DNA of 64,000 nucleotides from an uncultured bacterium (GTDB lineage: Bacteria > Acidobacteriota > Aminicenantia > Aminicenantales > Saccharicenantaceae), in assembly GCA_937920515.1 (NCBI GenBank), contig CALEUG010000003.1:2108-66107 (forward strand). Reading direction: 5' to 3'. Shown here piece by piece: positions 3 to 16,609 of this stretch. Below the pieces are notes generated by a model. The model did not search any database. It was given only the letters and a program-made list of their open reading frames with translations, and was not told the origin of the DNA. The translations under genes were made by a program, and so were the position numbers. Every line of letters begins with the position of its first letter. Position 1 is the stretch's first letter.

Positions 3-1376
3 CTTGTCTTTCAGGTTCTCAACCCCCCTCGCCTGGATTTTGCGGCCGGCGGCCAGGCCGAAAAATCGGGTGGAATTGCCACGCCCAGCTTTTCGGTTGT
101 CGGGCTGTCCCGAATCCTCGGCCCGGTGGGTGCCGCCCTTACTGAATCAGTCCCGGACCCTGTAGCCCAGGCCGCTGCTGCCCTGAACGACATAGTTAAC
201 GGAAAGTTTGACCCCAAAAAGTTTTTCAGCGACAAGGCTAAAATCCTCGGCGGAATTCTGCTCCAGGATGTCATCGACCAGGTTAATGATTTCACCAGCC
301 CGGCCAACACCGGAAAAGCCCTGACCATCAAGAACGAACAGGTTTACGAAAGCGACGGCAAAACCCCGGCCGGACTCAAGACTCTTCTCAAATGGACTCC
401 TTCCGTCCATGACGTCCTGATATTCATCGCCAGCCGCGACGGGACCAGGTCCACACTGACTTTGAACGTGGAAGTCATTAACTATTTCAACGGAAAAGAA
501 TCGACTTACAAAGTCAAGGGAGAACTTACCGACTTCACCCTCGACCTGATCAAGGGCATCACCACCTTTATCCTGGTCAAATTCTCAAAATTTACCTTTA
601 CCTCAGAAAAAGGGAAGAAAACAGATGTCGACCCGAAAATCGCTTCCATCGATTTCCAGGGCCCGCTCAAATTCATAAAAGAACTTCTTGATAAAATTCC
701 GCTACCAGGAGGCTTCAGCGAGGCCGACGGAGGCTTTGGCGGAAAGCCGATAGTCAGGGTTGATACCTCCGGGGCCAGGCTGGGCTATGCCCTGTCAATT
801 CCCGACGTGGCCTTCGGAGTCTTCACCCTGCAGAACCTGAGTTTCAGCGGAGAAATTTACCTGCCTTTTACCGGCGACCCGGTTTCCCTGCGCTTTGCCT
901 TCAACGAAAAGAATAACCCCTTCCTGGTAACCGTGGCCATGTTCGGCGGCGGGGGGTTCTTCGCCATCGTGCTGCAGCCCCACGGCATCAAGCTCATCGA
1001 AGGTTCCCTGGAGTTCGGCGGCAGCTTTGCCATGAACATCGGCGTGGCCAGCGGCGGGGTTACCCTGATGGCCGGTATCTACTTCAAGTACGAAGACGAG
1101 GCCCTGACCCTGACCGGGTATGTCCGCTGCACCGGAGAGCTGGACGTCCTGGGACTCATCAGCATCTCGGCAGAATTTTACCTGTCGCTTACATACGAAG
1201 AAGCCCGTAACCGGGTCTGGGGCCAGGCCTCGCTGACCGTCAAAATCAAGATAGTCTTCTTCAGCATCAAGGTAACGTTGAAAGTTGAAAGAGAGTTCGG
1301 ACACTCACCGGCGCCGCTCTTCTGTGACCTGATGGAAGAAAAAGACTGGCTGGCTTACTGTGAAGCCTTTGCCTGA
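3..1376 (+). CDS. hypothetical protein, 5'-truncated by window edge (reading frame open from nt 3; ORF track shows GTG at 126 but no upstream stop). C-terminal half is Gly-rich with alternating hydrophobic stretches
   Basis: Frame 3 has no stop from nt 3 to the stop at 1374-1376. Coding-like composition. Followed 14 nt later by the next gene with a strong RBS. No recognisable family motif. Confidence 0.6.
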   Translation, partial: LVFQVLNPPRLDFAAGGQAEKSGGIATPSFSVVGLSRILGPVGAALTESVPDPVAQAAAALNDIVNGKFDPKKFFSDKAKILGGILLQDVIDQVNDFTSPANTGKALTIKNEQVYESDGKTPAGLKTLLKWTPSVHDVLIFIASRDGTRSTLTLNVEVINYFNGKESTYKVKGELTDFTLDLIKGITTFILVKFSKFTFTSEKGKKTDVDPKIASIDFQGPLKFIKELLDKIPLPGGFSEADGGFGGKPIVRVDTSGARLGYALSIPDVAFGVFTLQNLSFSGEIYLPFTGDPVSLRFAFNEKNNPFLVTVAMFGGGGFFAIVLQPHGIKLIEGSLEFGGSFAMNIGVASGGVTLMAGIYFKYEDEALTLTGYVRCTGELDVLGLISISAEFYLSLTYEEARNRVWGQASLTVKIKIVFFSIKVTLKVEREFGHSPAPLFCDLMEEKDWLAYCEAFA

Positions 1377-1390
1377 AAGGGAGGACGAGA

Positions 1391-4300
1391 ATGGCTAAAT
1401 CAACAATAATGTGGACCGTTTGTCCCAACGGAATTAAGGATGGCAAGCTGCAGTTTTCGGCCGCAGTCTCCATACGCCTGGAAGAAGGCTCAGGCGGAAA
1501 AACCCCGAGCCTCAATTTTTTCCCGGAAATACTTAACTGGCCAGAAACCGTTAAGGCCATAAATTTTGGAGTTATTTACGATAAGAGAAAGGCTGCCGGG
1601 CCAGCCGAAATCAGGAGAACCTCACCAGACCCGGAACCTGAACTCTGGCAGGCCATCTTCAAGCCTGAAGCACCCGTCTTCAATTTCAAGATGGCCGACC
1701 TGAGCAAGAACCTGGTGATATCCTACCCGGTAAAGAATGTCCTGACCTTTGTAGCCTCTCAGTATCTTAACGTGGCCGCAGAATCGCCCGAAGAACCACC
1801 GCCGATAGAAAAAGTTTTCCACACCGAGGGCCTGGCTCAAATCAGGCTTAAGCCCATTACCGATGTCCGTTTTGCCCAGACTGTTCAGCTCCGGACCACC
1901 CGGCAGGTTATGGCCCAGTCAGTCAGGCGGGAGGCCGAGAGTCAGAAGATAAGAGCGGTCCAGGTCACTCCCCTGCCCCAGCCGCCTAAAGATTTCTTCT
2001 TGCTCCGTGATTTTCACAGGCCAAAAAACAGGATAACCTTTGACCCCAAGACTAAACAACCGATTGTCAGGAGGGTGCCCATCACCAGACCGGAGATAGA
2101 TTTCCACCAGGCCCTGGCCTTCCTCACCAATTATCCAGCACTGATGAGACTCCTGGGCCTGGCCGTTGATTTTGAGATGGAAGTGCCGTCAGATTTTCCG
2201 GCCAGCGGCTGGATTAAAATTGTACCCGGGGGCCGGAGCGACGAAACGCCGAGAACAGCATATAACTTTGACCCGGCCCGTGGAATCTTTGAGGCCGCTT
2301 CCAGCAAAAGGCCACCAGAGGTGGTCAGAGGCTTCTTAAACCTGGCCGATGAAGAACAATATGACCTTGTTCAGCTCGATGTCGATGCCATAGCCCTGAA
2401 AACGGCCGAGCTGGCCGACACGGCCGAGACCAGGGAAAAAGCGGAGCTTCCAGCCCTGCGCTCAAGTGGCCTGGGCGTTGTAAGAAATGAGCAGGCCAGG
2501 AACATGGCCGAAGTCCTGGTTCGGGCCGTGGAACTTAACAATGATTTGGTGCGCAAAAGGGAAATAACACTCTTCGCTGAAGATTTAGTGCAGGGCTACC
2601 GGGTCGATGTCTGGGACGAAAAATCCAGGAAATGGCATTCCCTCTGCCAGCGTATCGGAACTTACCGCTTCCTCCGGCTGGACAGAGAACTAACCCTGGA
2701 AGACGAAGGTTTTATATCACCCGCCGTGACCCAGTCGGCAGACGAATCATCCGAAGATATTTTCGCCCATGAATCTCTTTTTCACTGGGACGGCTGGAGC
2801 TTAGTGGCCCCCCGACCCGGAAAGACCATCGACCCGAACGATAATCCGCAAACTATCGAAAACAAAGCCCTTACCGATTTTCTGCTGGAAACCAGGTTCA
2901 GGCCCAGGCCGGGTTCTCTGCCCAGGTTAAGATACGGAGTTGGCTACAGGCTAAGGGCCAGAGCCGTCGACCTGGCCGGAAACAGCCAGCCCCTGGAAAA
3001 TCCTGACGACAGCTGTGCTATTCCACCTCCTTCCAAGCCACCCTTTACCTTCAGCCGTTTTGACCCAGTGCCCTCGCCCCTGGTCATACCCCGTGAAGCA
3101 CCTAAAAGCGGAGAGAACGTGGACCACGTGGTCATAAAGAGTTTTAACGAATCCATAGAGAAGGACAATGTGCCCACCAACCAGGTTTCCGACCGCCACC
3201 TGGCCCCGCCAAAAATCTCCCAGCTGGACTCTGAATTTCATGGGATGTTTGACAGCGCTTCCGGGTTGAAGCCCGAAGTCTATTCTCTGATATGCCAGCG
3301 GGATGGAGGCCGGTTTAAAGAAATGGAGCCGGGCGAGCAGATAGAACTTCCTTACTTCCCTGACCCCTGGGCTCGCGGGGCCTGTATCCGCGGCTTGCCT
3401 TACGGAGCGCCCGACCCGATGCTGATTGAATTTTCAGGCGACTGGCCGGATTACAGGCCGTTTAGAATCAGATTGCAGGAAGGCAGTCAGCCTGCCCGCT
3501 GGGATAATTCCTCCCGCCTTCTGACTGTTTACCTGAAAAAGGGAGAATCGGTTACGTTGCGCCTGAGCTGTTATTTCCCTGAAAGATTACTGCCCGTCCA
3601 GGGACTTTACCGCTGGCTGGAAAAACCTGAAAGGATTATCCCGCAAAAAGTCATGCAGCCGCCGCGGGGTCTACCCGAAGGCCAGGTCCAGGTCCTGAAA
3701 ACCCTCCAGCCGCCCCGAATTGACCTGGCCAGAGTGCGCACGCTTTCGCTTCAGGGGCGCAACTGGTTGATGACACCCTTCAGAGAGATTACCCTGATTC
3801 ATGCCACTCTGCAGCCTGTCGGTAAACCGCGTCATAAATCACTGGAAGCCCGGAGAACGCTCGGCCAGACCTCAGCCATTCTATACGGAGAGTTTGAGCT
3901 CCACGGGCCTAGCACCTCCAAGGCCGAACTTCTGGCCGACTGGAAAGAGCCGGTGGATTACCTTAACGAACCCGGACCCAGGGTCCTGGATGGCAAAGCT
4001 CATGTCCTGGAATTCAAGGTAGACCCGGCCCAGACCTCGCTGACCCTGACTCCAGGGCCTGAAGCCGGAAGGACAGCAGCTCAACCAGGTACGACCCAAC
4101 TTCAGACCAGGTCGGCTTCAGTGGCCATGGTCAGGGCCCCGCAGACTCCGGTTTACCGCCATGAATTCGGCGACACCAGGTTCAGAAGGGTCTACTATCG
4201 CCTGCTTACGACCACTAGGTACATGGAGCAATTTCCCTCGAACGAACTGCCGGAAGAAACCGGATACACCAGAAGCAGCGACCCGGTGGAAGTCAAGGTG

Positions 4301-5383
4301 CTCAACACAGCTCCACCGGCCATGCCGAAAGTCGTTTACGTGGTACCATCTTTTAAGTGGGAAAGGAGCAAGAAAGGCTCTCAGATTACCAGCTTCAGGA
4401 AGAGCGCCCTCCGGGTTTATTTAGAAAGGCCATGGTATTCAAGTGGCGAGGGGGAGCTCCTGGCAGTAATCCTGCCGCCGGGAATCACGGTAACCCCGAA
4501 AAAGCCGGTGGTCGCTCCGGCCAGCCGGGCCGACGCACCGCAGGTTTCCCAGAGGATTCAGCCCCAGCTCCAGAGGAAAACCGTGCCCGGGGCTCTTCAG
4601 GTGAGTGTTCCTCCGGTGGCCGAGAAATACAAGCCCTACGTTACCATGTGGGGAGCCGACCCCATCTGGAGGTCAGGACCGGTGGCTCCGCCCGAGTATC
4701 CGTTGCCGGATGCCTTCCCTTCGGCGGTGGAAATAATGGGAGACCTGCCGCTTCTGGAATTGCCGGAAGATAAGAAATTCATCGCCGTCGGCCACCAGGT
4801 TGAATATGACGCCGAGCGGCAGTTGTGGTTCTGCGACTTAGAACTTGATTCCGGCCAGGCTTACTTTCCGTTTATCAGGCTGGCTCTGGCCAGGTTCCAG
4901 CCAGATTCAGTAGCCGGAGCTCATCTGTCACAGGTGGTGGTGGCCAATTTCGCCCAGATTCTGCCCGAAAGGAACCTGACCGTGACTTTCAATCCTTCAA
5001 GCCTCAAGGAAATCAGCATCAGCCTGTCGGGTGTGTCTTACATCCAGGGTTATGCCGGCAGCGGCCCGGGTGAGGTGGAGGTGGCCCTGGAAACCAAGAA
5101 ATTGAACCTGCCCGACGAGCTGGGCTGGGAACCGGTCGAAGATGCGGTCATTACCCTGAAACCGCAGCGGGCCGGGGCCACAGAAGTCGGCTCGTTTATC
5201 TGGCAGGGAGTTCTTAAACTCCCCTCGGGCCTGAAAATCCAGGATTACAGAATTGCGGTCCGGGAATATGAATTATTCGACACCGACGAAATGGATAAAG
5301 CCGCCAGGACCGTAGCCGCCGTCACCCATAAAAAGTATAAACGTTTAATATACGCCGAGACCATCAAGCTTCTGGACCTTTAA
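1391..5383 (+). CDS. large hypothetical protein (1330 aa), Pro-rich, with no signal peptide, TM segment, Walker A or HExxH motif seen
   Basis: Uninterrupted 3993-nt ORF. RBS AGGGAGGA sits 6 nt upstream of ATG 1391, immediately after the upstream gene, so the two look like a co-operonic pair. No known catalytic motifs found by eye. Confidence 0.65.
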   Translation: MAKSTIMWTVCPNGIKDGKLQFSAAVSIRLEEGSGGKTPSLNFFPEILNWPETVKAINFGVIYDKRKAAGPAEIRRTSPDPEPELWQAIFKPEAPVFNFKMADLSKNLVISYPVKNVLTFVASQYLNVAAESPEEPPPIEKVFHTEGLAQIRLKPITDVRFAQTVQLRTTRQVMAQSVRREAESQKIRAVQVTPLPQPPKDFFLLRDFHRPKNRITFDPKTKQPIVRRVPITRPEIDFHQALAFLTNYPALMRLLGLAVDFEMEVPSDFPASGWIKIVPGGRSDETPRTAYNFDPARGIFEAASSKRPPEVVRGFLNLADEEQYDLVQLDVDAIALKTAELADTAETREKAELPALRSSGLGVVRNEQARNMAEVLVRAVELNNDLVRKREITLFAEDLVQGYRVDVWDEKSRKWHSLCQRIGTYRFLRLDRELTLEDEGFISPAVTQSADESSEDIFAHESLFHWDGWSLVAPRPGKTIDPNDNPQTIENKALTDFLLETRFRPRPGSLPRLRYGVGYRLRARAVDLAGNSQPLENPDDSCAIPPPSKPPFTFSRFDPVPSPLVIPREAPKSGENVDHVVIKSFNESIEKDNVPTNQVSDRHLAPPKISQLDSEFHGMFDSASGLKPEVYSLICQRDGGRFKEMEPGEQIELPYFPDPWARGACIRGLPYGAPDPMLIEFSGDWPDYRPFRIRLQEGSQPARWDNSSRLLTVYLKKGESVTLRLSCYFPERLLPVQGLYRWLEKPERIIPQKVMQPPRGLPEGQVQVLKTLQPPRIDLARVRTLSLQGRNWLMTPFREITLIHATLQPVGKPRHKSLEARRTLGQTSAILYGEFELHGPSTSKAELLADWKEPVDYLNEPGPRVLDGKAHVLEFKVDPAQTSLTLTPGPEAGRTAAQPGTTQLQTRSASVAMVRAPQTPVYRHEFGDTRFRRVYYRLLTTTRYMEQFPSNELPEETGYTRSSDPVEVKVLNTAPPAMPKVVYVVPSFKWERSKKGSQITSFRKSALRVYLERPWYSSGEGELLAVILPPGITVTPKKPVVAPASRADAPQVSQRIQPQLQRKTVPGALQVSVPPVAEKYKPYVTMWGADPIWRSGPVAPPEYPLPDAFPSAVEIMGDLPLLELPEDKKFIAVGHQVEYDAERQLWFCDLELDSGQAYFPFIRLALARFQPDSVAGAHLSQVVVANFAQILPERNLTVTFNPSSLKEISISLSGVSYIQGYAGSGPGEVEVALETKKLNLPDELGWEPVEDAVITLKPQRAGATEVGSFIWQGVLKLPSGLKIQDYRIAVREYELFDTDEMDKAARTVAAVTHKKYKRLIYAETIKLLDL

Positions 5384-5686
5384 AAGGATCTGGCTGAAAA
5401 CTTAATCTTATTTACTGTGCCCAAGGAAAGAGCCAGGTCTAAGGGCCATTTCTCCGGTTCAGCTAACAACACCCTGGAAAACGATTTTTATATTTTACCT
5501 CTTCTCTTTACTAAACTCTTTTTATGATTTTTCTGATTTCTTTTGTTCTCAACATTTCTGCTCGGGCTTAAGTTCTCCTGTGGTTAATTTTTAATACCGG
5601 ACAAAAAACAAAAAATAACAATTGAGGCTGATAAAATTGATAAAATACTGATCAGGTATTGAATGAGGAGATTTTGAATTTCGATA

Positions 5687-7000
5687 TCAGCCCAGATAAG
5701 CCTTTTTGGCCCTTATGGCGGCGGATCTGTGATCGACGATGGGTTGGTGGTAGCCTGGAATGTCCAGCGCCTTAATTGCACCGCAATCAACCTTCTTCAG
5801 CTCCGGCAGGTATTTTTTTATGTAGCGGCAGTCGGGGTCGTATTTTTCAGTTTGCAGTTGCGGGTTGAACATCCGCAGGGGCCTGGGGTCGGCTCCGACC
5901 GAGGCTGACCACTGCCAGTTACCGGTGTTGACCACCTCATCATAATCCAGAAGATATTTTTTGAATAACTTCTCCCCTATCCTCCAGTCAATCAGCAGGT
6001 CCTTGGTCAGGAAAGAAGCCACAATCAACCTGGCCCGGTTATGCATCCAGCCTTCTTCTTTGAGCTGGTTTATGGCGGCATCGATAACGGGATAACCGGT
6101 GCGGGCCTCTTCCACCGCCCTGATGTCTTCGTCGCGGTTGAGCCATTTGAGGCCCCGGCGTTTCTCCTGGAATTCCAGGTTTTCGGTCCAGGGGAAATGA
6201 TAACGAATGTGGTACCAGAACTCCCGCCAGGCCAGTTCTTTTACGAACTGGCTGTCCGCTTCCAGTCTCTTTCTGACCGCCGCCAGCACTTCCCTGATGG
6301 AGACCAGCCCGAACCTTATGGCCACCGACAGGCGACTGGTACCGTCTGTGGCCAGCTTGTTCCGGCCTTCGTCGTAAACGCGGAAATCATACTGCTTGAG
6401 CCTTCGCCCGGCATAATCAACCTTCCAGTATCTGTTAATCTCGTGGGGTACTAACTTCAAGGTTTCGGTTAGCGATGGCAATTTAAGGACTGGCGTTTTA
6501 AGAAGTTCGGGTTCCGGTTTGAGGCTTAAATCCTCAGAGGCTAAAGCCGCGTTCCACAGCCTGAAAAACGGGCTGTAGACTTTACGGGCCTCAATTTTTT
6601 CCGGTGGCACCAGCAGGGAGTCATTGAAATCCTTAAAAATAACCCCAGCCTGGCGGCAAAGAGCTTCCACTTTCTTCTGGGTTTTCTCTCCGGTCCAGGA
6701 ATAGCTGCGGTTGGTGTAAAGGGCGTCGGGTTTAAGCCGGGTAATGAGCCGGGCAAAAATTTCTTCAGGTTGCCCGTAGAAGCAATAGAGCCGGCTGGCC
6801 CGGGCCCGGAGTCTGGCTTCCAGCTGCTCCAGGGCTGAAGCCAGAAAACCGGTTCTCCAGGCAGGGCCATTCAGGCCGGACAATAACTTCCTATCAAAAA
6901 TGAAGACGGGAATTATCTCGGCCGAAAGAGCGGACAGCTCATACAGGCCGCGGTTGTCCTTGAGCCTTAAATCTCTCTTGAACCAGAAAATAGACCGCAC
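5687..7000 (-). CDS. phrB: deoxyribodipyrimidine photolyase (cryptochrome/photolyase family, FAD-binding)
   Basis: N-terminal WFKRDLRLKDN photolyase motif. C-terminal FAD-binding signature WREFWYHI...TGYPVIDAAINQL...GWMHNRARLIVASFL...NWQWSASVG. GTG start preceded by GGAAGGTGAA. Confidence 0.85.
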   Translation of the reverse strand: MRSIFWFKRDLRLKDNRGLYELSALSAEIIPVFIFDRKLLSGLNGPAWRTGFLASALEQLEARLRARASRLYCFYGQPEEIFARLITRLKPDALYTNRSYSWTGEKTQKKVEALCRQAGVIFKDFNDSLLVPPEKIEARKVYSPFFRLWNAALASEDLSLKPEPELLKTPVLKLPSLTETLKLVPHEINRYWKVDYAGRRLKQYDFRVYDEGRNKLATDGTSRLSVAIRFGLVSIREVLAAVRKRLEADSQFVKELAWREFWYHIRYHFPWTENLEFQEKRRGLKWLNRDEDIRAVEEARTGYPVIDAAINQLKEEGWMHNRARLIVASFLTKDLLIDWRIGEKLFKKYLLDYDEVVNTGNWQWSASVGADPRPLRMFNPQLQTEKYDPDCRYIKKYLPELKKVDCGAIKALDIPGYHQPIVDHRSAAIRAKKAYLG

Positions 7001-7047: not shown

Positions 7048-7548
7048 TTAATAGCTAATCTTTTTGACCACGATGCTGGGCACCAGGCGATATCCGTTAC
7101 CATCCGGAACGGCGGATTGAGCTGCGTCAAAATCCAGGGTCACTTTTACTTTCCCATCCTCGAGCACCGTAAAATTAACAGGAACCGTGATGGTCAGCGG
7201 CGTATTGATGTTTATCTGGAAACTCCGGCCATTGACGACAACCTCGGCATTGGTGATTACCAGCTTGATACCGGTATAAGTCCCAGGCGGAAGATCTGCC
7301 TGGCAGACCTTCTCTTCCCTGTTTCTCAGCAGGAGCAGGTCATAGGTCCTGGGCCCGGCTAAAAGATTATCAGTCCAGGTGCCGTCCTCCAGCCTTAAAT
7401 ATATCTGGCTGATGGTAACATAAAAATGCTCCAGGCCGGCCAGAGGAGCATCGGTCAGATAAAGCTCGAAGTTAGATGACCTGTCAGGAGAACAGCCAGA
7501 CTGAATTAAGAGAAGAATCCCCGTTAAGATCAGGACCTTCCTTTTCAT
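7048..7548 (-). CDS. lipoprotein, DUF4382-like
   Basis: Signal peptide plus lipobox (LLLIQSGCS). Pattern LTDAPL...LPPGTYTGIKLVI...VNGRSF...LDFDAAQSAVPDGNGYRLVPSIVV resembles DUF4382 family lipoproteins. Confidence 0.55.
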   Translation of the reverse strand: MKRKVLILTGILLLIQSGCSPDRSSNFELYLTDAPLAGLEHFYVTISQIYLRLEDGTWTDNLLAGPRTYDLLLLRNREEKVCQADLPPGTYTGIKLVITNAEVVVNGRSFQININTPLTITVPVNFTVLEDGKVKVTLDFDAAQSAVPDGNGYRLVPSIVVKKISY

Positions 7549-7667: not shown

Positions 7668-8375
7668 TTATTTTCTTCCCTCCACGTACTTTTTTACCCT
7701 GGCCAGGGAAGAACGGACGTTGCTCCTTTCAAGCCAGTTGCGGAGAAAAGCCGGGACAGGGAAAGCAGGTTTGACCAGGCTTCCGTAACGGGCCACCGTC
7801 CTGTGGTCGTCGTACCTGAACAGTTTCCAGAAACCGTGGAGTTCTTTCAGGTCGTGCGGTTCGTTGCGGTCGAGCTCCCACCACAGGTAAAACTGCCCGG
7901 GGTTGAAATGATGGATGACAGTATAGCGGACCTTCTGGCCCATCACTTTGACCAGAAAAAACATCCGGTTATAATCCTGACCCTGCTCAACCATCTTTAA
8001 CTCTTCGATTTCTTCGATATAGTCTGCCTGGCGCTCGGTGGCCGAAAGAATTGCCCAGGCCTGCTCGACGGGAACCTCAAAAATCAGGGCAGCCGAAATT
8101 ATGGTTTTGCCCTCGGACTCCACTTCGCGGGGAAAAACCAGCACCACCTGGCCGGCCAGCACTTTATTCTTCTGCTCTTCAGTTAGCCCCTTCAAACCAT
8201 CGGGGCCAAAGTCGGGCCCAGCCTGATGTATTTGAAGGTCCCCGGCGGGCTGAAATCTTAATCCGGTTAGGTCTTCACCGCAAACCCGATTGGAGGCAAT
8301 TCCGGTTGCCGGTGGCCTGGCACAAAGAGTGATAACTAAAATGCTGTTAATAATAATCAGTAAACTTCTTTTCAT
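7668..8375 (-). CDS. secreted protein, tentatively SRPBCC/START-like fold
   Basis: N-terminal signal peptide. Weak resemblance to polyketide-cyclase/SRPBCC proteins in the C-terminal half. Call is tentative. Confidence 0.35.
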   Translation of the reverse strand: MKRSLLIIINSILVITLCARPPATGIASNRVCGEDLTGLRFQPAGDLQIHQAGPDFGPDGLKGLTEEQKNKVLAGQVVLVFPREVESEGKTIISAALIFEVPVEQAWAILSATERQADYIEEIEELKMVEQGQDYNRMFFLVKVMGQKVRYTVIHHFNPGQFYLWWELDRNEPHDLKELHGFWKLFRYDDHRTVARYGSLVKPAFPVPAFLRNWLERSNVRSSLARVKKYVEGRK

Positions 8376-8546: not shown

Positions 8547-8632
8547 GCCGGGGTGGCGGAATTGGTAGACGCAAGGGACTTAAAATCCCTCGGGGTGTAA
8601 ACTCCGTGCCGGTTCGAGTCCGGCCCTCGGCA
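8547..8632 (+). tRNA. tRNA-Leu (anticodon TAA), class II with long variable arm
   Basis: Cloverleaf folds by eye. Acceptor GCCGGGG/CCTCGGC, D-arm GCGGAATTGGTAGACGC, anticodon stem AGGGA/TCCCT with loop CTTAAAA, long variable arm, T-arm GCCGG-TTCGAGT-CCGGC, discriminator A. No encoded CCA. Confidence 0.9.
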
Positions 8633-12592: not shown

Positions 12593-15500
12593 TTACCTTA
12601 CATAAAGCTCATCAAACAGCATCCAGGCTTTCTGACCGGCATTGGGGAAACCCTCCGGGATTGTGCCAGGATTAACAGCCTTAACCCGGAGGAAGCGGCC
12701 TTCCGCACCGCGAAGTGAAACGTAGAGTGATTTCTGGGCTGGCCCCGGCGGCTTTTCGGGCAGGGCAAATTGTTTCTCGGCTACCTTTTCAAACTTTCGG
12801 CCGTCCAGAGAAACTTCCACTTCCACCCTGACCGGCAGGAAGACCCTGGCATTATTATTTTCGAGGCAGCTGAGCTCCAGCTCGTACAGGTCCTGTTTTC
12901 GTCCGAGGTCCAGTACCACCACCAGGTCATTCCCTTCGTAGCCCTGCCAGTTCTGATCCCTAACTTCAGGCCCGGCCTTAACCAGGTCAATGAGGGTCTT
13001 TTCGCCGGCCGCACCGGGACGGGAAGAAGCCGGAGGGCTGAAATATACGATATCTTTTATCGGGTAGGACTGGCTGTAAAAAGCCGTGGCCACCGGGCTC
13101 GGCTGCCGCCTTGGATGAAAAGCCATGGCTTTAAGAACCGCCGTGCCCCTGATTATTATCGGTCCCCCGTAGACCGGAGACTTTTCAGTCGGCTCGCTGC
13201 CATCCAGCGTATAGTGAATTTCGGCACCTTCCAGTCCAGCCCTGATGTTCACGCTGGCCGGCTCTGCAGGGCTGACATAGGCCCGGGCCGGCTCGATAAC
13301 CGGCAGCGGGACTACCTGCCATCTTTCATACTCGGCCTGGTTTCTTTTCAGCACGTCAAAGAGATTCCGGGCAGGACGGCTGTTGTCATTCTCGTTCCAG
13401 GCCACAGTCATGGCCAGGATTTTGATGGCCGGATTTACCGGCAACTTAACAGTCCGGGCTCCGGCCGGCAGTTCCACCGCATACTTCAACATGTATCCAT
13501 AGATATAAGCTTCGTTGCCCTCAACCGGATGATGGAGATGAGTGGTGAAAAAGGCCACGTTATCCTGCCGGGTATATCCCGGAACAACCCCGGTGTAGGT
13601 ATATTTTTCCCGGTCAAAATCAATTTTACCCGCCGGACCTTCGGCCCAGGTCCGGTTATCCCACTGGCCGATAAAGCCCGACCAGTAAGCCACCGGGATT
13701 TCCACGTTCTTTTCCCCCACCCTGAACAGACCTTTCTGATTTTCTTCGGCCGCCGCCGCCAGAATGTACAGACGGTTAAACTTTCCGTCAGGAATCTCTA
13801 TCTCCTGGCCCTCACAGGCCACGGCATTTCTCGCCCCGTCTGTCCGGGGCCCGAGCTTGAAGCTGAGGCTATCAGTCACAATTGTGTCAGGCACCCACTC
13901 GGCCGGGAAGCTGCGCCCGCTGGAATCAAAAGCGCCGTCCTGCCGGTTTTGGTCATGGCTGAAGACATCAACGTTGTACGGGAGTTCCACCGGAACCGAG
14001 AGCGGCGGGGTTAGCTGACTGGCAATCGGAAGAAGCTTTAAGGCAAAGGTTTTTATTCCAAAAGGATTCAGGTCAAAGACCAGCTTCCCCTCGCGCACCA
14101 CGGCCGGACCAATTTCCTCTTCCAATCCGTTCACTTCCCGGGCAGCGCTGATCCCGGTCAGGAAGGACAGGGTGGCTTTTTTTAAGCTCTGGCCTTTGGT
14201 CTCGACCAGTCTGATTATCACTTCATCTGAATTTTCGGCTTTCTTTATGGCCGAGATGTGGAGGTTATCGTGGCTGACTCTCAGGAAAGAAACATTCTGG
14301 CCCAGGCTGCCCTCATGGGAAACGGTCTGGAAGGCCAGAAGGGGCTGGTTAAGACGCAGGGCTTGTTGTCCGGTCCCACCCTGCCGCCAGTCCCCCTGGT
14401 GACCGTAAATGGCATACATAATTTCGTGCCGGCCGAAGTCCTGGGTGGCCTGCTCTCCGGGCCAGGACCGCACTCCAGGAGTATAAAGCAAGGTCAGACG
14501 AAGCATGTTGTCGGCCGGCTTATCGGAACCGTACTTGCAATCTTCCAGGATGGAAACACCGTAACCGCCTCTCTTATCGGTCAGGTCAAACCACAGGTGT
14601 GACGGCACCTCGAACTTCTTGGGGTCGTTGTTTCCCCGCTGAATTGTTCCCAGTCCCCAGTTGTAAGTGGCCAGCGGATTGGAGACTGTCAGCGGGAAGG
14701 CAGCTTTGAGAGACGATTCCCTGGTAGCCCAGTCAATCAGGTTGTAAAATTCCAGCCGGTCTCCTGCCGCACCGGCAGCCAGTCTTATATATTGAACAAA
14801 CTTAGAGCCACGGGCTTCCCTTTCGATTTCAATGGCCACCCTGGCCGGACCATTCTCTACCACAAAAACCCTGGCCGGTCCGGTCACATATCCGGAAGGG
14901 GGCTTCATCCGGTCTTCCCAGTCCATATTCCAGGCTGGCCACTGCTGCGGTTTTTCATGGTGGAAAGACAGCCTGGCGGAGGAAGCCAGCAATTCCCGGC
15001 GGGCTTTCTTGTCGAAGATACTCGACACCTCGCCCTCCCGGTTAAGCTTTACCAGATAGCGGCTGTTTTCCAGGTGGTTAGGGCTGACCTTCAAACCTGT
15101 GGCCAGGCGACAGGGCTCAGAGGAAGGCCTGACATCATAAACGCTGAACCCGACAGAAGGGACCGCGGCCAGAAAAATCAGCCTGACCGTATGTTCATTT
15201 TTTCCAAGAATCTGGGACGGCACTTCCCTGCCGTCCGGGGCAAAAACTCTAAGGTATTCAGCGGACTGCGGCAATTCCAGCTCGGCTTCCACCACATCTT
15301 CCCGGTCAAAAGCCAGCGGGTTGTAAACCACCACCGGATAACCCTTTACCCTGGTATCCAGGGCCCTGATGACCGCTCCAGCTGAATCCACAAGAACCGC
15401 GCTGAACTGGTTGGCGGCCAGGAACTCGTCGTTCCAGGAGAACTCATAGGCCCGCGGGATGCTGGTTCCGGGCAGAATATCATGAAACTGGGCGCCGAGG

Positions 15501-16609
15501 ACCAGGCGCCAGGCTTCGTTGATTTTTTCCCTGTTGTAGGATGCCCCACCCAGCCAGTCGGCTACCACTGCCGCCGCTTCAGCCGAATAGCCCAGGAACT
15601 CATTCTTGCGGTTCCAGCGTTTCATGGCTGCCTGGGAAGTGATGGAGCCAGCCGAATGGTTGGTCAGGAGAAACTCGCCACTGTAGGTGGGCAATCTTTT
15701 TTTCTGCGCTTCATTCAGGTTCAGGAAAAATTCATCGGCCCGGGCCGAAACCACCTTGAGGTCCGATTGCTGGCTGCTCTCCAGACTGAGCACCAGGTTC
15801 CGAACCGAGTTTTCATCCGGAGCCCCGCCGACATCTCCGGTTCCGAAATACATGTAATCGCCGTAGACACCGTACTTCTGCCCGTTTTCGCTGACTCTCA
15901 GCCTCCAGGTTGGATGCCGGGTCAGGTCGCCCGTTATCTTGCCGGTATAATCACCGGGATTGAGGGCGGCCACCACGAACTGGCCGTCCGGTCCGTACCA
16001 GGTCCCGACGTTAAAGGGAACCCCGACCGCCGAACCCCAGGTCAGCTTCTGGGTGGAAAAGCCTTTCAGGCCGCAATGGGCCAGGATGGAAGGAAGGGAA
16101 GCCGGGAAACCGAAGCAGTCGGGCAGCATGTACTCCTTGCTGCTGAACCCGAATTCCTTCTTGAAGTACTCGGTGCCATAAAGAATCTGCCTGATGATGG
16201 ATTCAAAGGACGGCACCATGACATCGTTTTCTTCCATCGATGAGCCTGAAGGAAACCAGCGCCCCCTGACCACGTAATCTTTAACCTTCGCATATTCCTT
16301 CGGGTAATATTCCTTCATCATACGGTAACGGTTGGCTCCGCTGAAATTAAAAACGTAACCCGGGTACTTCTCAAACAGGGCAAAATTATCGACCATGGTG
16401 TTCCAGATGTATTCTTTAATGGTCTTCTGGTAGTCCCAGCGCCACTGGGTATCGAGGTGGGCATAACCCACCGCAAACAGGACTTTTTGCCGGCTGAGGT
16501 CATAACCGCCCTGGCCGAAGGCTGGAAGTGCTGCCAGACCGGGGAGAAAAGAAAACAGGGTTATGATAAGGGCTAAAGTTTTTTTTACCTGGATAATTTT
16601 TTTAACCAT
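12593..16609 (-). CDS. glycoside hydrolase family 38 alpha-mannosidase, secreted, with long C-terminal extension (Fn3/chitobiase-like and discoidin-like segments)
   Basis: Signal peptide. GYAHLDTQWRW and LPDCFGFPASLPSILAHCGLKGFSTQKLTWG are GH38 N-terminal catalytic-domain signatures. 1338 aa. Confidence 0.85.
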   Translation of the reverse strand: MVKKIIQVKKTLALIITLFSFLPGLAALPAFGQGGYDLSRQKVLFAVGYAHLDTQWRWDYQKTIKEYIWNTMVDNFALFEKYPGYVFNFSGANRYRMMKEYYPKEYAKVKDYVVRGRWFPSGSSMEENDVMVPSFESIIRQILYGTEYFKKEFGFSSKEYMLPDCFGFPASLPSILAHCGLKGFSTQKLTWGSAVGVPFNVGTWYGPDGQFVVAALNPGDYTGKITGDLTRHPTWRLRVSENGQKYGVYGDYMYFGTGDVGGAPDENSVRNLVLSLESSQQSDLKVVSARADEFFLNLNEAQKKRLPTYSGEFLLTNHSAGSITSQAAMKRWNRKNEFLGYSAEAAAVVADWLGGASYNREKINEAWRLVLGAQFHDILPGTSIPRAYEFSWNDEFLAANQFSAVLVDSAGAVIRALDTRVKGYPVVVYNPLAFDREDVVEAELELPQSAEYLRVFAPDGREVPSQILGKNEHTVRLIFLAAVPSVGFSVYDVRPSSEPCRLATGLKVSPNHLENSRYLVKLNREGEVSSIFDKKARRELLASSARLSFHHEKPQQWPAWNMDWEDRMKPPSGYVTGPARVFVVENGPARVAIEIEREARGSKFVQYIRLAAGAAGDRLEFYNLIDWATRESSLKAAFPLTVSNPLATYNWGLGTIQRGNNDPKKFEVPSHLWFDLTDKRGGYGVSILEDCKYGSDKPADNMLRLTLLYTPGVRSWPGEQATQDFGRHEIMYAIYGHQGDWRQGGTGQQALRLNQPLLAFQTVSHEGSLGQNVSFLRVSHDNLHISAIKKAENSDEVIIRLVETKGQSLKKATLSFLTGISAAREVNGLEEEIGPAVVREGKLVFDLNPFGIKTFALKLLPIASQLTPPLSVPVELPYNVDVFSHDQNRQDGAFDSSGRSFPAEWVPDTIVTDSLSFKLGPRTDGARNAVACEGQEIEIPDGKFNRLYILAAAAEENQKGLFRVGEKNVEIPVAYWSGFIGQWDNRTWAEGPAGKIDFDREKYTYTGVVPGYTRQDNVAFFTTHLHHPVEGNEAYIYGYMLKYAVELPAGARTVKLPVNPAIKILAMTVAWNENDNSRPARNLFDVLKRNQAEYERWQVVPLPVIEPARAYVSPAEPASVNIRAGLEGAEIHYTLDGSEPTEKSPVYGGPIIIRGTAVLKAMAFHPRRQPSPVATAFYSQSYPIKDIVYFSPPASSRPGAAGEKTLIDLVKAGPEVRDQNWQGYEGNDLVVVLDLGRKQDLYELELSCLENNNARVFLPVRVEVEVSLDGRKFEKVAEKQFALPEKPPGPAQKSLYVSLRGAEGRFLRVKAVNPGTIPEGFPNAGQKAWMLFDELYVR

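Follow-up and report, generated by a model that had tools for sequence, protein, structure and literature searches.

What do two large, adjacent genes encode when their protein products resemble nothing that has been characterized? This question is raised by the first 5,383 nucleotides of a 64,000-nucleotide stretch of DNA (the window) from an uncultured bacterium of the Saccharicenantaceae (Acidobacteriota; contig CALEUG010000003.1). A preliminary description, made from the letters of the window alone, pointed out two consecutive genes for large proteins at this edge, which we call gene A and gene B. As detailed below, the pair constitutes a complete two-gene module, its two members co-evolve, and they lie outside every described family by sequence and by fold, where folds were compared with those in PDB and BFVD.

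Gene A runs off the 5' end of the window. Its frame is open from nucleotide 3 to a TGA at positions 1374-1376, which leaves 457 codons in the window, and it contains the Gly-rich segment quoted in the preliminary description, MFGGGGFFAIVLQPHGIKLIEGSLEFGGSFAMNIGVASGGVTLMAGIYFKYE. A Logan contig identical to the window (L001) adds 1303 nucleotides upstream to gene A, and the start is still not reached. Gene A is complete, with 1112 amino acids, in a related Saccharicenans genome (L002) whose B protein is 87% identical to that of the window. The portion of A encoded in the window is 92.6% identical to residues 656-1112 of this orthologue (L002:4997-8335). Gene B starts with an ATG at position 1391, 14 nucleotides after the stop codon of gene A and behind a strong Shine-Dalgarno sequence, and its product is a Pro-rich (9.5% Pro) protein of 1330 amino acids and 149.6 kDa. 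The features that the preliminary description listed for this edge were all confirmed. Chance open reading frames (ORFs) can be excluded, and A and B are judged to be real genes, because they have hundreds of homologues with 30-90% identity over the full length.

The preliminary description further placed upstream partner genes outside the window. The only part that falls beyond the edge is A's own N-terminus (~655 residues), and in L002 an unrelated, divergently oriented methyltransferase gene precedes A, along with a glyoxalase gene and carB. One genome per species was scanned, relatives of B turned up in at least 525 species, and gene order was examined at the 80 best loci. Gene A is located directly 5' of gene B on the same strand at 75 of these, which is every locus that could be tested, since the other five have <300 nucleotides of upstream sequence. 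The gap between the two is a few tens of nucleotides or less as a rule and a few hundred in a minority of loci. All-against-all clustering of the neighbouring ORFs at the 80 genome loci revealed no third conserved gene, including no conserved upstream partner. Thus the complete module consists of A and B only. The earlier suggestion that the genes are translationally coupled is supported, and they are strictly co-conserved.

The histories of the two proteins are likewise tied together. Pairwise identities among A proteins correlate with those among B proteins from the same loci (r = 0.89, or 0.73 for pairs with <50% identity; 64 loci), where the largest value obtained by permutation is 0.145; A and B co-evolve. 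The two are not homologous to each other, as hhalign assigns a probability of 0.06% to such a relationship and a shared domain is rejected. A fused A-B protein was sought as proof of interaction, and the sole candidate, P0416, was discarded: it belongs to family A, and what is appended to it is a repeat region of unrelated sequence. This 1731-residue protein carries a C-terminal extension of ~660 residues with internal repeats (...QPHYLAY..., ...SKLQGRLT...) that is unrelated to B.

The families are large and widely spread. An exhaustive hidden Markov model search with the C-terminal part of A yielded 4,880 clusters at 50% identity, 2,958 of them at E <= 1e-30, and the Gly-rich beta-domain is situated at the extreme C-terminus in all of the 150 best hits except P0416. 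The 80 examined loci span Acidobacteriota, Armatimonadota, Chloroflexota, Actinomycetota, Bacillota, Pseudomonadota, Bacteroidota, Verrucomicrobiota and others, for a total of more than ten phyla, and the order of A followed by B is seen in organisms as diverse as Phototrophicus (Chloroflexota), Saccharothrix (Actinomycetota), Armatimonadota, Bacillus thuringiensis, B. bombysepticus and Diaphorobacter (Betaproteobacteria). Across phyla, both proteins retain ~60 invariant residues and 30-35% identity over their whole length. The pair is also present on 22 plasmid or chromid records from the B. cereus group (megaplasmids), Rhizobium/Sinorhizobium, Cupriavidus metallidurans CH34, where it occupies ~1.317-1.325 Mb of the chromid, and Streptomyces. 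Two archaeal records, independent of each other, belong here as well: a Nitrososphaeraceae metagenome-assembled genome (MAG) carries the pair (L077, 6109-13796) and a partial Nitrososphaerales record carries an A protein (P0131); these copies reflect either inter-domain transfer or contamination during binning.

Searches of A and B against Pfam, NCBIfam, PADLOC, PHROGs and PDB sequences returned no match at permissive thresholds, whether single sequences or family profiles were used, and the family profile retrieved nothing from PDB sequences at E <= 10. Homology to a characterized family, which would have argued against the novelty proposed in the preliminary description, was not found in these databases. 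We call the pair new because it displays none of the features by which membership of known barrel, secretion, defence and phage families was assessed, and the label implies no demonstrated new mechanism. An incomplete search of the literature turned up no description of such a pair, and prior work is possible.

The strongest functional clue is a predicted signal for twin-arginine translocation (Tat) on protein A. The L002 orthologue begins with MTDPESRKKKEGERDSRPARI-SRRKFL-SYAGILGATPVMG, which has the appearance of a canonical twin-arginine signal; the equivalent part of the window's gene A lies outside the window. This N-terminus (SRRKFLSYAGILGATPVMG) conforms to the Tat consensus S/T-R-R-x-F-L-K with a weakly hydrophobic, uncharged h-region. 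An S/T-R-R-x-F-L motif with an uncharged h-region is present in ~78 of 114 full-length A proteins, and the twin-arginine motif was found in about half of the complete A genes at genome loci when the whole upstream open frame was scanned. It is concentrated in Aminicenantes and in long forms of A (1400-1790 amino acids) from Armatimonadota, Symbiobacteriaceae, Marinifilum, Dehalococcoidia and some Proteobacteria. Among the A proteins of Aminicenantes, the charged n-region varies freely and the twin arginines and the h-region are conserved. The model TIGR01409 (TAT_signal_seq) matches six of eight diverse A N-termini, two of them above its cutoff of 16.7 bits (17.7 and 19.5 bits) and four below it, and the remaining two give no match. 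The N-termini of long-form A proteins (e.g. P0305, P0308, P0322, P0333 and P0353) additionally share a conserved 'M..RLNLxxLR' motif 25-40 residues before the twin-arginine pair, and the A protein of B. thuringiensis has a similar motif, MASELNISFLRQGRF, but lacks both the twin arginines and the h-region. Within the signal, this motif might act in chaperone binding or in regulation.

A structure model was computed for a full-length orthologue of A from an alignment of 58 sequences (predicted local distance difference test (pLDDT) score 79.7; predicted template modelling score 0.69). The model comprises a disordered, signal-bearing N-terminus, a small beta-sandwich, a large and very confidently predicted beta-rich centre with long hairpins (residues ~240-900), and a final domain (~905-1087) with 14 antiparallel strands of up to 19 residues each. 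Nine consecutive strands of this region (912-1087) alternate strictly between two faces across the family. The hydrophobic face has mean Kyte-Doolittle values of +1.75 to +3.3 with mostly ~0% charged or polar residues (maximum 0.19), and the polar face has values of -0.5 to -2.3 with 14-57% charged or polar residues. Unusually conserved Gly motifs (FGGGGFF, EFGG and ASGGV..MAGIY) run through the strands. As modelled, the C-terminal domain has the geometry of outer-membrane beta-barrels. The pattern of amphipathic strands in the family and in the model supports the beta-hairpin or pore-like impression that the Gly-rich segment had given in the preliminary description. Beyond this domain, A ends with two short helices and a nearly invariant ...DW..YCEAFA-COOH, where, in 58 diverse sequences, W1104 and Y1107 never vary and conservation is at least 90% at A1110, F1111 and A1112.

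Protein B has a different character. As previously described, it carries no signal peptide, transmembrane segment, P-loop or metalloprotease motif: motif scans for P-loop, HExxH and CxxC were empty, and no segment reaches transmembrane-grade hydrophobicity (the best 19-residue Kyte-Doolittle mean is 1.42). The model of B, which covers residues 131-1330, predicts a combination of novel modules and FN3/immunoglobulin (Ig)-like sandwiches. None of 84 B proteins has an export signal, including those encoded beside a signal-less A, and all 84 start within ~10 residues of the conserved first strand. In some genomes B is fused to other domains, including PG_binding_1 and PLD (Kitasatospora) or two PG_binding_1 domains (Inquilinus), and elsewhere Big_3_5, an inserted LamG or arrays of ASH/HYDIN-type Ig domains. 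Because of these fusion partners, we infer that B is extracytoplasmic.

Taken as a whole, these characteristics lead us to a tentative proposal in which A and B form a Tat-exported complex that acts at a membrane, with A as a pore or channel and B in a binding or anchoring role. A and B would assemble in the cytoplasm in step with their coupled translation, and B may shield the hydrophobic face of A's beta-domain there. The folded complex would then exit through the Tat translocase, with B hitch-hiking on the signal of A. Indirectly, the strict adjacency of the genes, their 14-nucleotide coupled junction and the co-evolution of the proteins (r = 0.89) favour the putative binding of B to A ahead of export. 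Finally, the amphipathic beta-domain of A would insert into or line a membrane as a pore or channel, and B would bind or anchor. The target could be either the envelope of the producer itself or the membrane of another cell, the latter corresponding to a toxin-like role. With similar caution, the pair can be viewed as an autonomous, horizontally mobile two-gene module that might encode a heteromeric complex located outside the cytoplasm at the membrane. We regard as doubtful the bolder extension of this proposal, according to which the pair would represent a pan-bacterial class of giant membrane-active heterodimers, in which a pre-folded complex of ~270 kDa is the largest Tat cargo known and a porin-like domain inserts in folded form without the beta-barrel assembly machinery (BAM) in diderms, monoderms and possibly archaea.

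Several observations weigh against a Tat-exported pore. The outer-membrane barrels known so far insert unfolded, whereas Tat cargo is folded. Conservation of the barrel-like domain is just as high in monoderm bacteria and the archaeal MAG, all of which lack an outer membrane, and the amphipathic sheet predicted for A might just as well lie against a protein core or form the lining of a lipid groove. A conserved immunity-like gene was not found beside the pair. The signal of the Saccharicenans orthologue scores 15.6 bits, compared with the curated TIGR01409 cutoff of 16.7, and about half of the A proteins have no signal at all, including those of Actinomycetota, Bacillus/Paenibacillus, Phototrophicus, Bryobacteraceae and Verrucomicrobiota, as well as the archaeal copy. 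In Kitasatospora, a B protein with a peptidoglycan-binding domain accompanies an A protein without a Tat signal, and therefore export cannot depend on Tat everywhere. Size is a further concern. Mature A and B together amount to 268 kDa, and the long form of A alone reaches 176-197 kDa, whereas a review puts the upper limit for Tat cargo at ~150 kDa (PMC6708511).

Given these difficulties, other explanations for the pair were considered. One is that A and B build a structural or adhesive complex of the cell surface or cell wall that forms no pore, with B as an Ig/FN3-rich surface protein, A as its scaffold or anchor, and the beta-domain as a platform for binding proteins or lipids. The predominance of FN3/Ig-like sandwiches in B, its acquisition of Big_3_5, LamG, ASH/HYDIN-Ig and PG_binding_1 domains, the few neighbouring genes for proteins with LysM, PG_binding_1 or LGFP domains, and the placement of A outside the cytoplasm by its Tat signal are all consistent with such a complex. 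However, adhesins are usually fast-evolving and repetitive, in contrast to the sequence conservation noted above, and Pfam searches found no sortase, S-layer, type IX secretion system or other anchoring motif. Moreover, the long amphipathic strands, with a hydrophobic face of 7-10 residues, exceed the needs of a simple scaffold, and we consider this explanation unlikely. A basically cytoplasmic or inner-membrane-associated complex, moved to the periplasm in some lineages by an added Tat signal, seems similarly improbable. There is precedent in some enzyme families that have both cytoplasmic and periplasmic versions. An export signal is absent from half of the A proteins and from all B proteins, the complex is larger than usual Tat cargo, and the many invariant polar and aromatic residues (His, Asp, Glu, Arg and Trp) found all along A and B might represent active sites or tight interfaces. 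Nevertheless, B is fused to extracytoplasmic peptidoglycan-binding, Big_3_5 and LamG modules even where A is signal-less, no nucleotide-binding, metal-cluster or other catalytic motif was found, and a fold search of PDB gave no enzyme-like match.

A further reading is that the pair serves in anti-phage defence or abortive infection and kills infected cells by permeabilizing their membrane. The membrane-active appearance of the domain in A fits such a module, as do the patchy distribution of the pair, its occurrence on plasmids, and its position in B. thuringiensis inside a Gabija-like/helicase island next to an integrase. A few other neighbours match single PADLOC models (LmuA, Avs1a). We nonetheless judge this to be very unlikely: A and B themselves have no PADLOC match, defence-type neighbours are only singletons among 120 flanking genes, and the pair in the window and its relatives has housekeeping neighbours (carB, methyltransferase, photolyase). 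The Tat signal and the peptidoglycan-binding fusions also indicate the extracellular side rather than an intracellular sensor. An origin from phage tail, baseplate or fibre proteins, or from a tailocin or contractile injection system, has only a third gene in Saccharothrix with a weak SPP1_Dit match (E 0.006) in its favour and is effectively refuted. A tblastn search of A and B against 50,697 phage genomes found no match, neither protein matches a PHROG, and Foldseek comparisons with BFVD gave TM-scores of at most 0.12 over the query. In addition, the pair is found on only one of 2.9 million IMG/VR contigs, and no sheath, tube, baseplate or ATPase genes are nearby.

If the proposed Tat-exported complex exists, what known system would it most resemble? 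In the logic of its export, the pair would be closest to the heterodimers that leave the cell by hitch-hiking. Folded heterodimers with a signal on just one subunit are established Tat cargo (PMC10924467; PMC4273604), and the Pseudomonas aeruginosa toxin PlcH is secreted as a folded complex of ~95 kDa with PlcR, which is encoded downstream (PMC3601568). Like PlcH-PlcR, the small and large subunits of [NiFe] hydrogenase, DmsAB and PaoABC, A and B are co-expressed partners that would share a single twin-arginine signal, and the resemblance to plcHR extends to a signal-less partner encoded directly downstream, as B is (PMC3601568). However, A and B have no relationship to these systems in sequence or fold and no cofactor-binding motif, their complex would be ~268 kDa compared with ~95 kDa for PlcHR2, and half of the family is signal-less.

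The operon logic, with a barrel-containing protein and a large Ig-rich partner, is superficially like that of two-partner secretion (TPS) or autotransporters. The identity of A to outer-membrane beta-barrels (FhaC/CdiB, CymA, OmpG, PgaA and TonB-dependent transporters) is <13%. A matches neither POTRA nor Omp85-type 16-stranded barrel models (Pfam Bac_surface_Ag, ShlB, POTRA), which sets it apart from Omp85/TpsB proteins, and it has no plug or porin signature in Pfam or NCBIfam, as would be expected of TonB-dependent transporters or porins. Its signal is of the Tat type rather than the Sec type, and B has neither a signal nor a TPS domain. The domain of A is also unusually conserved in sequence and carries Gly motifs, and the family occurs in monoderms and an archaeal MAG as well. 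Inverse (intimin/invasin) and classical autotransporters differ in that the barrel-like and Ig-rich parts of A-B are separate polypeptides that match no Big_1, LysM or autotransporter family of Pfam, and in that A-B is not restricted to diderms. The two-component beta-barrel or binary toxins of Bacillus and Clostridium (PA/Vip1-type) are likewise large, multi-domain proteins encoded by adjacent genes, sometimes on megaplasmids of the B. cereus group, and they divide the labour as we propose for A and B, one part inserting and the other binding. However, they have no detectable homology or fold similarity to A-B. Each protomer of the known beta-pore-forming toxins supplies one or two hairpins, compared with at least nine long amphipathic strands in A. 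A further difference is that the A-B pair also occurs in free-living bacteria of the subsurface, the soil and the sea for which no host is obvious.

Table 1. Coordinates of the features of the A-B module and its boundary, numbered as in the window.
Feature	Position	Strand	Basis or remarks
Gene A, C-terminal 457 codons and stop codon	3..1376	+	Open frame; cut off at the edge of the window
Amphipathic antiparallel beta-sheet or barrel-like domain of A, as predicted (full-length residues ~905-1087)	750..1298	+	Near-invariant FGGGGFF, EFGG, ASGGV..MAGIY and EFY..L.Y
Conserved C-terminal helical tail of A (...DLMEEKDWLAYCEAFA-COOH)	1320..1373	+	Ends 14 nucleotides before the start of B; model helices 1095-1111
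Shine-Dalgarno sequence GGAGGA for B, inside the 14-nucleotide A-B gap	1380..1385	+	Direct reading of the sequence
Gene B	1391..5383	+	1330 amino acids, 149.6 kDa; predicted novel alpha/beta modules and several FN3/Ig-like beta-sandwiches; no signal peptide
Variable low-confidence linker in B (residues ~892-917)	4064..4141	+	pLDDT <50 at model residues 762-787; columns without family consensus
Variable Pro/Ala/Gln-rich low-confidence linker in B (residues ~1035-1072)	4493..4606	+	pLDDT <50 at model residues 905-942; columns without family consensus
AT-rich boundary spacer of the module, where B and the photolyase gene converge	5384..5686	.	Composition, 34% GC

Past gene B, the window contains the AT-rich spacer and convergent photolyase gene noted in the preliminary description. 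The spacer measures 303 base-pairs and has 34% GC, compared with 55% in coding sequence; a simple scan gave no terminator-like hairpin and Rfam gave no family for it. The photolyase ORF (5687-7000, minus strand) has DNA_photolyase and FAD_binding_7 domains on the identical contig L001. Downstream of the A-B pair, at a distance of ~3 kb, is a tRNA gene (8547-8632, plus strand; Rfam RF00005, 58 bits), and between the two are the photolyase gene, a DUF4382 lipoprotein-like gene (7048-7548, minus strand) and a Polyketide_cyc2-like gene (7668-8375, minus strand). Unrelated to the pair is a 1338-codon ORF at 12593-16609 (minus strand), whose product appears by synteny with L002 (20372 onward) to be a GH38 alpha-mannosidase-like protein with Fn3_assoc/CHB_HEX_C. 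As a whole, the interpretation offered in the preliminary description is partly supported by our analysis.

Elsewhere, the immediate surroundings of the pair are heterogeneous. The 120 immediate neighbours represent 128 different Pfam families, and the commonest of these, 2OG-Fe(II) oxygenase, is found in only six. PADLOC-type genes among them are singletons. In the B. thuringiensis locus mentioned above (L007; NUNK01000033.1, 3378-23185), the pair is flanked on one side by two Gabija-like genes, for an OLD-TOPRIM ATPase and a UvrD helicase, and on the other by a DEAD/ResIII helicase gene, and a gene resembling phage integrases lies at the edge. This arrangement resembles a defence or mobile island, and such a context is absent from most other loci.

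Six loci (L043, L047, L049, L050, L058 and L063) from Bryobacteraceae, other Acidobacteriota, one Proteobacteria MAG and Streptosporangiaceae have two extra genes 3' of B (e.g. L049:14159-15735 and L058:5814-6752). These encode a 2OG-Fe(II) oxygenase and a 324-amino-acid protein that matches a PHROG annotated as ferrochelatase, and a family-2 glycosyltransferase is encoded upstream. The extra genes may constitute a protein-modifying accessory set. Protease genes adjoin the pair in two instances. In Saccharothrix deserti (L004), a gene with a weak trypsin-like peptidase match precedes A, and the gene ahead of A in B. bombysepticus (L008) encodes a papain-like cysteine protease; these proteases might process A or B. 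The S. deserti locus is also the source of the third gene with the SPP1_Dit-like match, which begins 14 nucleotides after B and encodes 622 amino acids with a Big_3_5 domain. These two S. deserti genes are at 5935-6924 and 14517-16385 of L004.

Two strictly paired families that extend over more than ten phyla, and that have no Pfam or NCBIfam model, no name and no structural relative in PDB or BFVD, are useful to recognize even with their function unassigned. Members are encoded by culturable and genetically tractable hosts, including Cupriavidus metallidurans CH34, Paenibacillus, Streptomyces and Bacillus, and direct testing is therefore possible. If the proposed model is true, A and B would represent a new kind of envelope or toxin machinery, would widen the size limit for folded cargo of the Tat system, and would provide a case in which a beta-barrel-like domain gets to a membrane with neither the Sec/BAM route nor an outer membrane.

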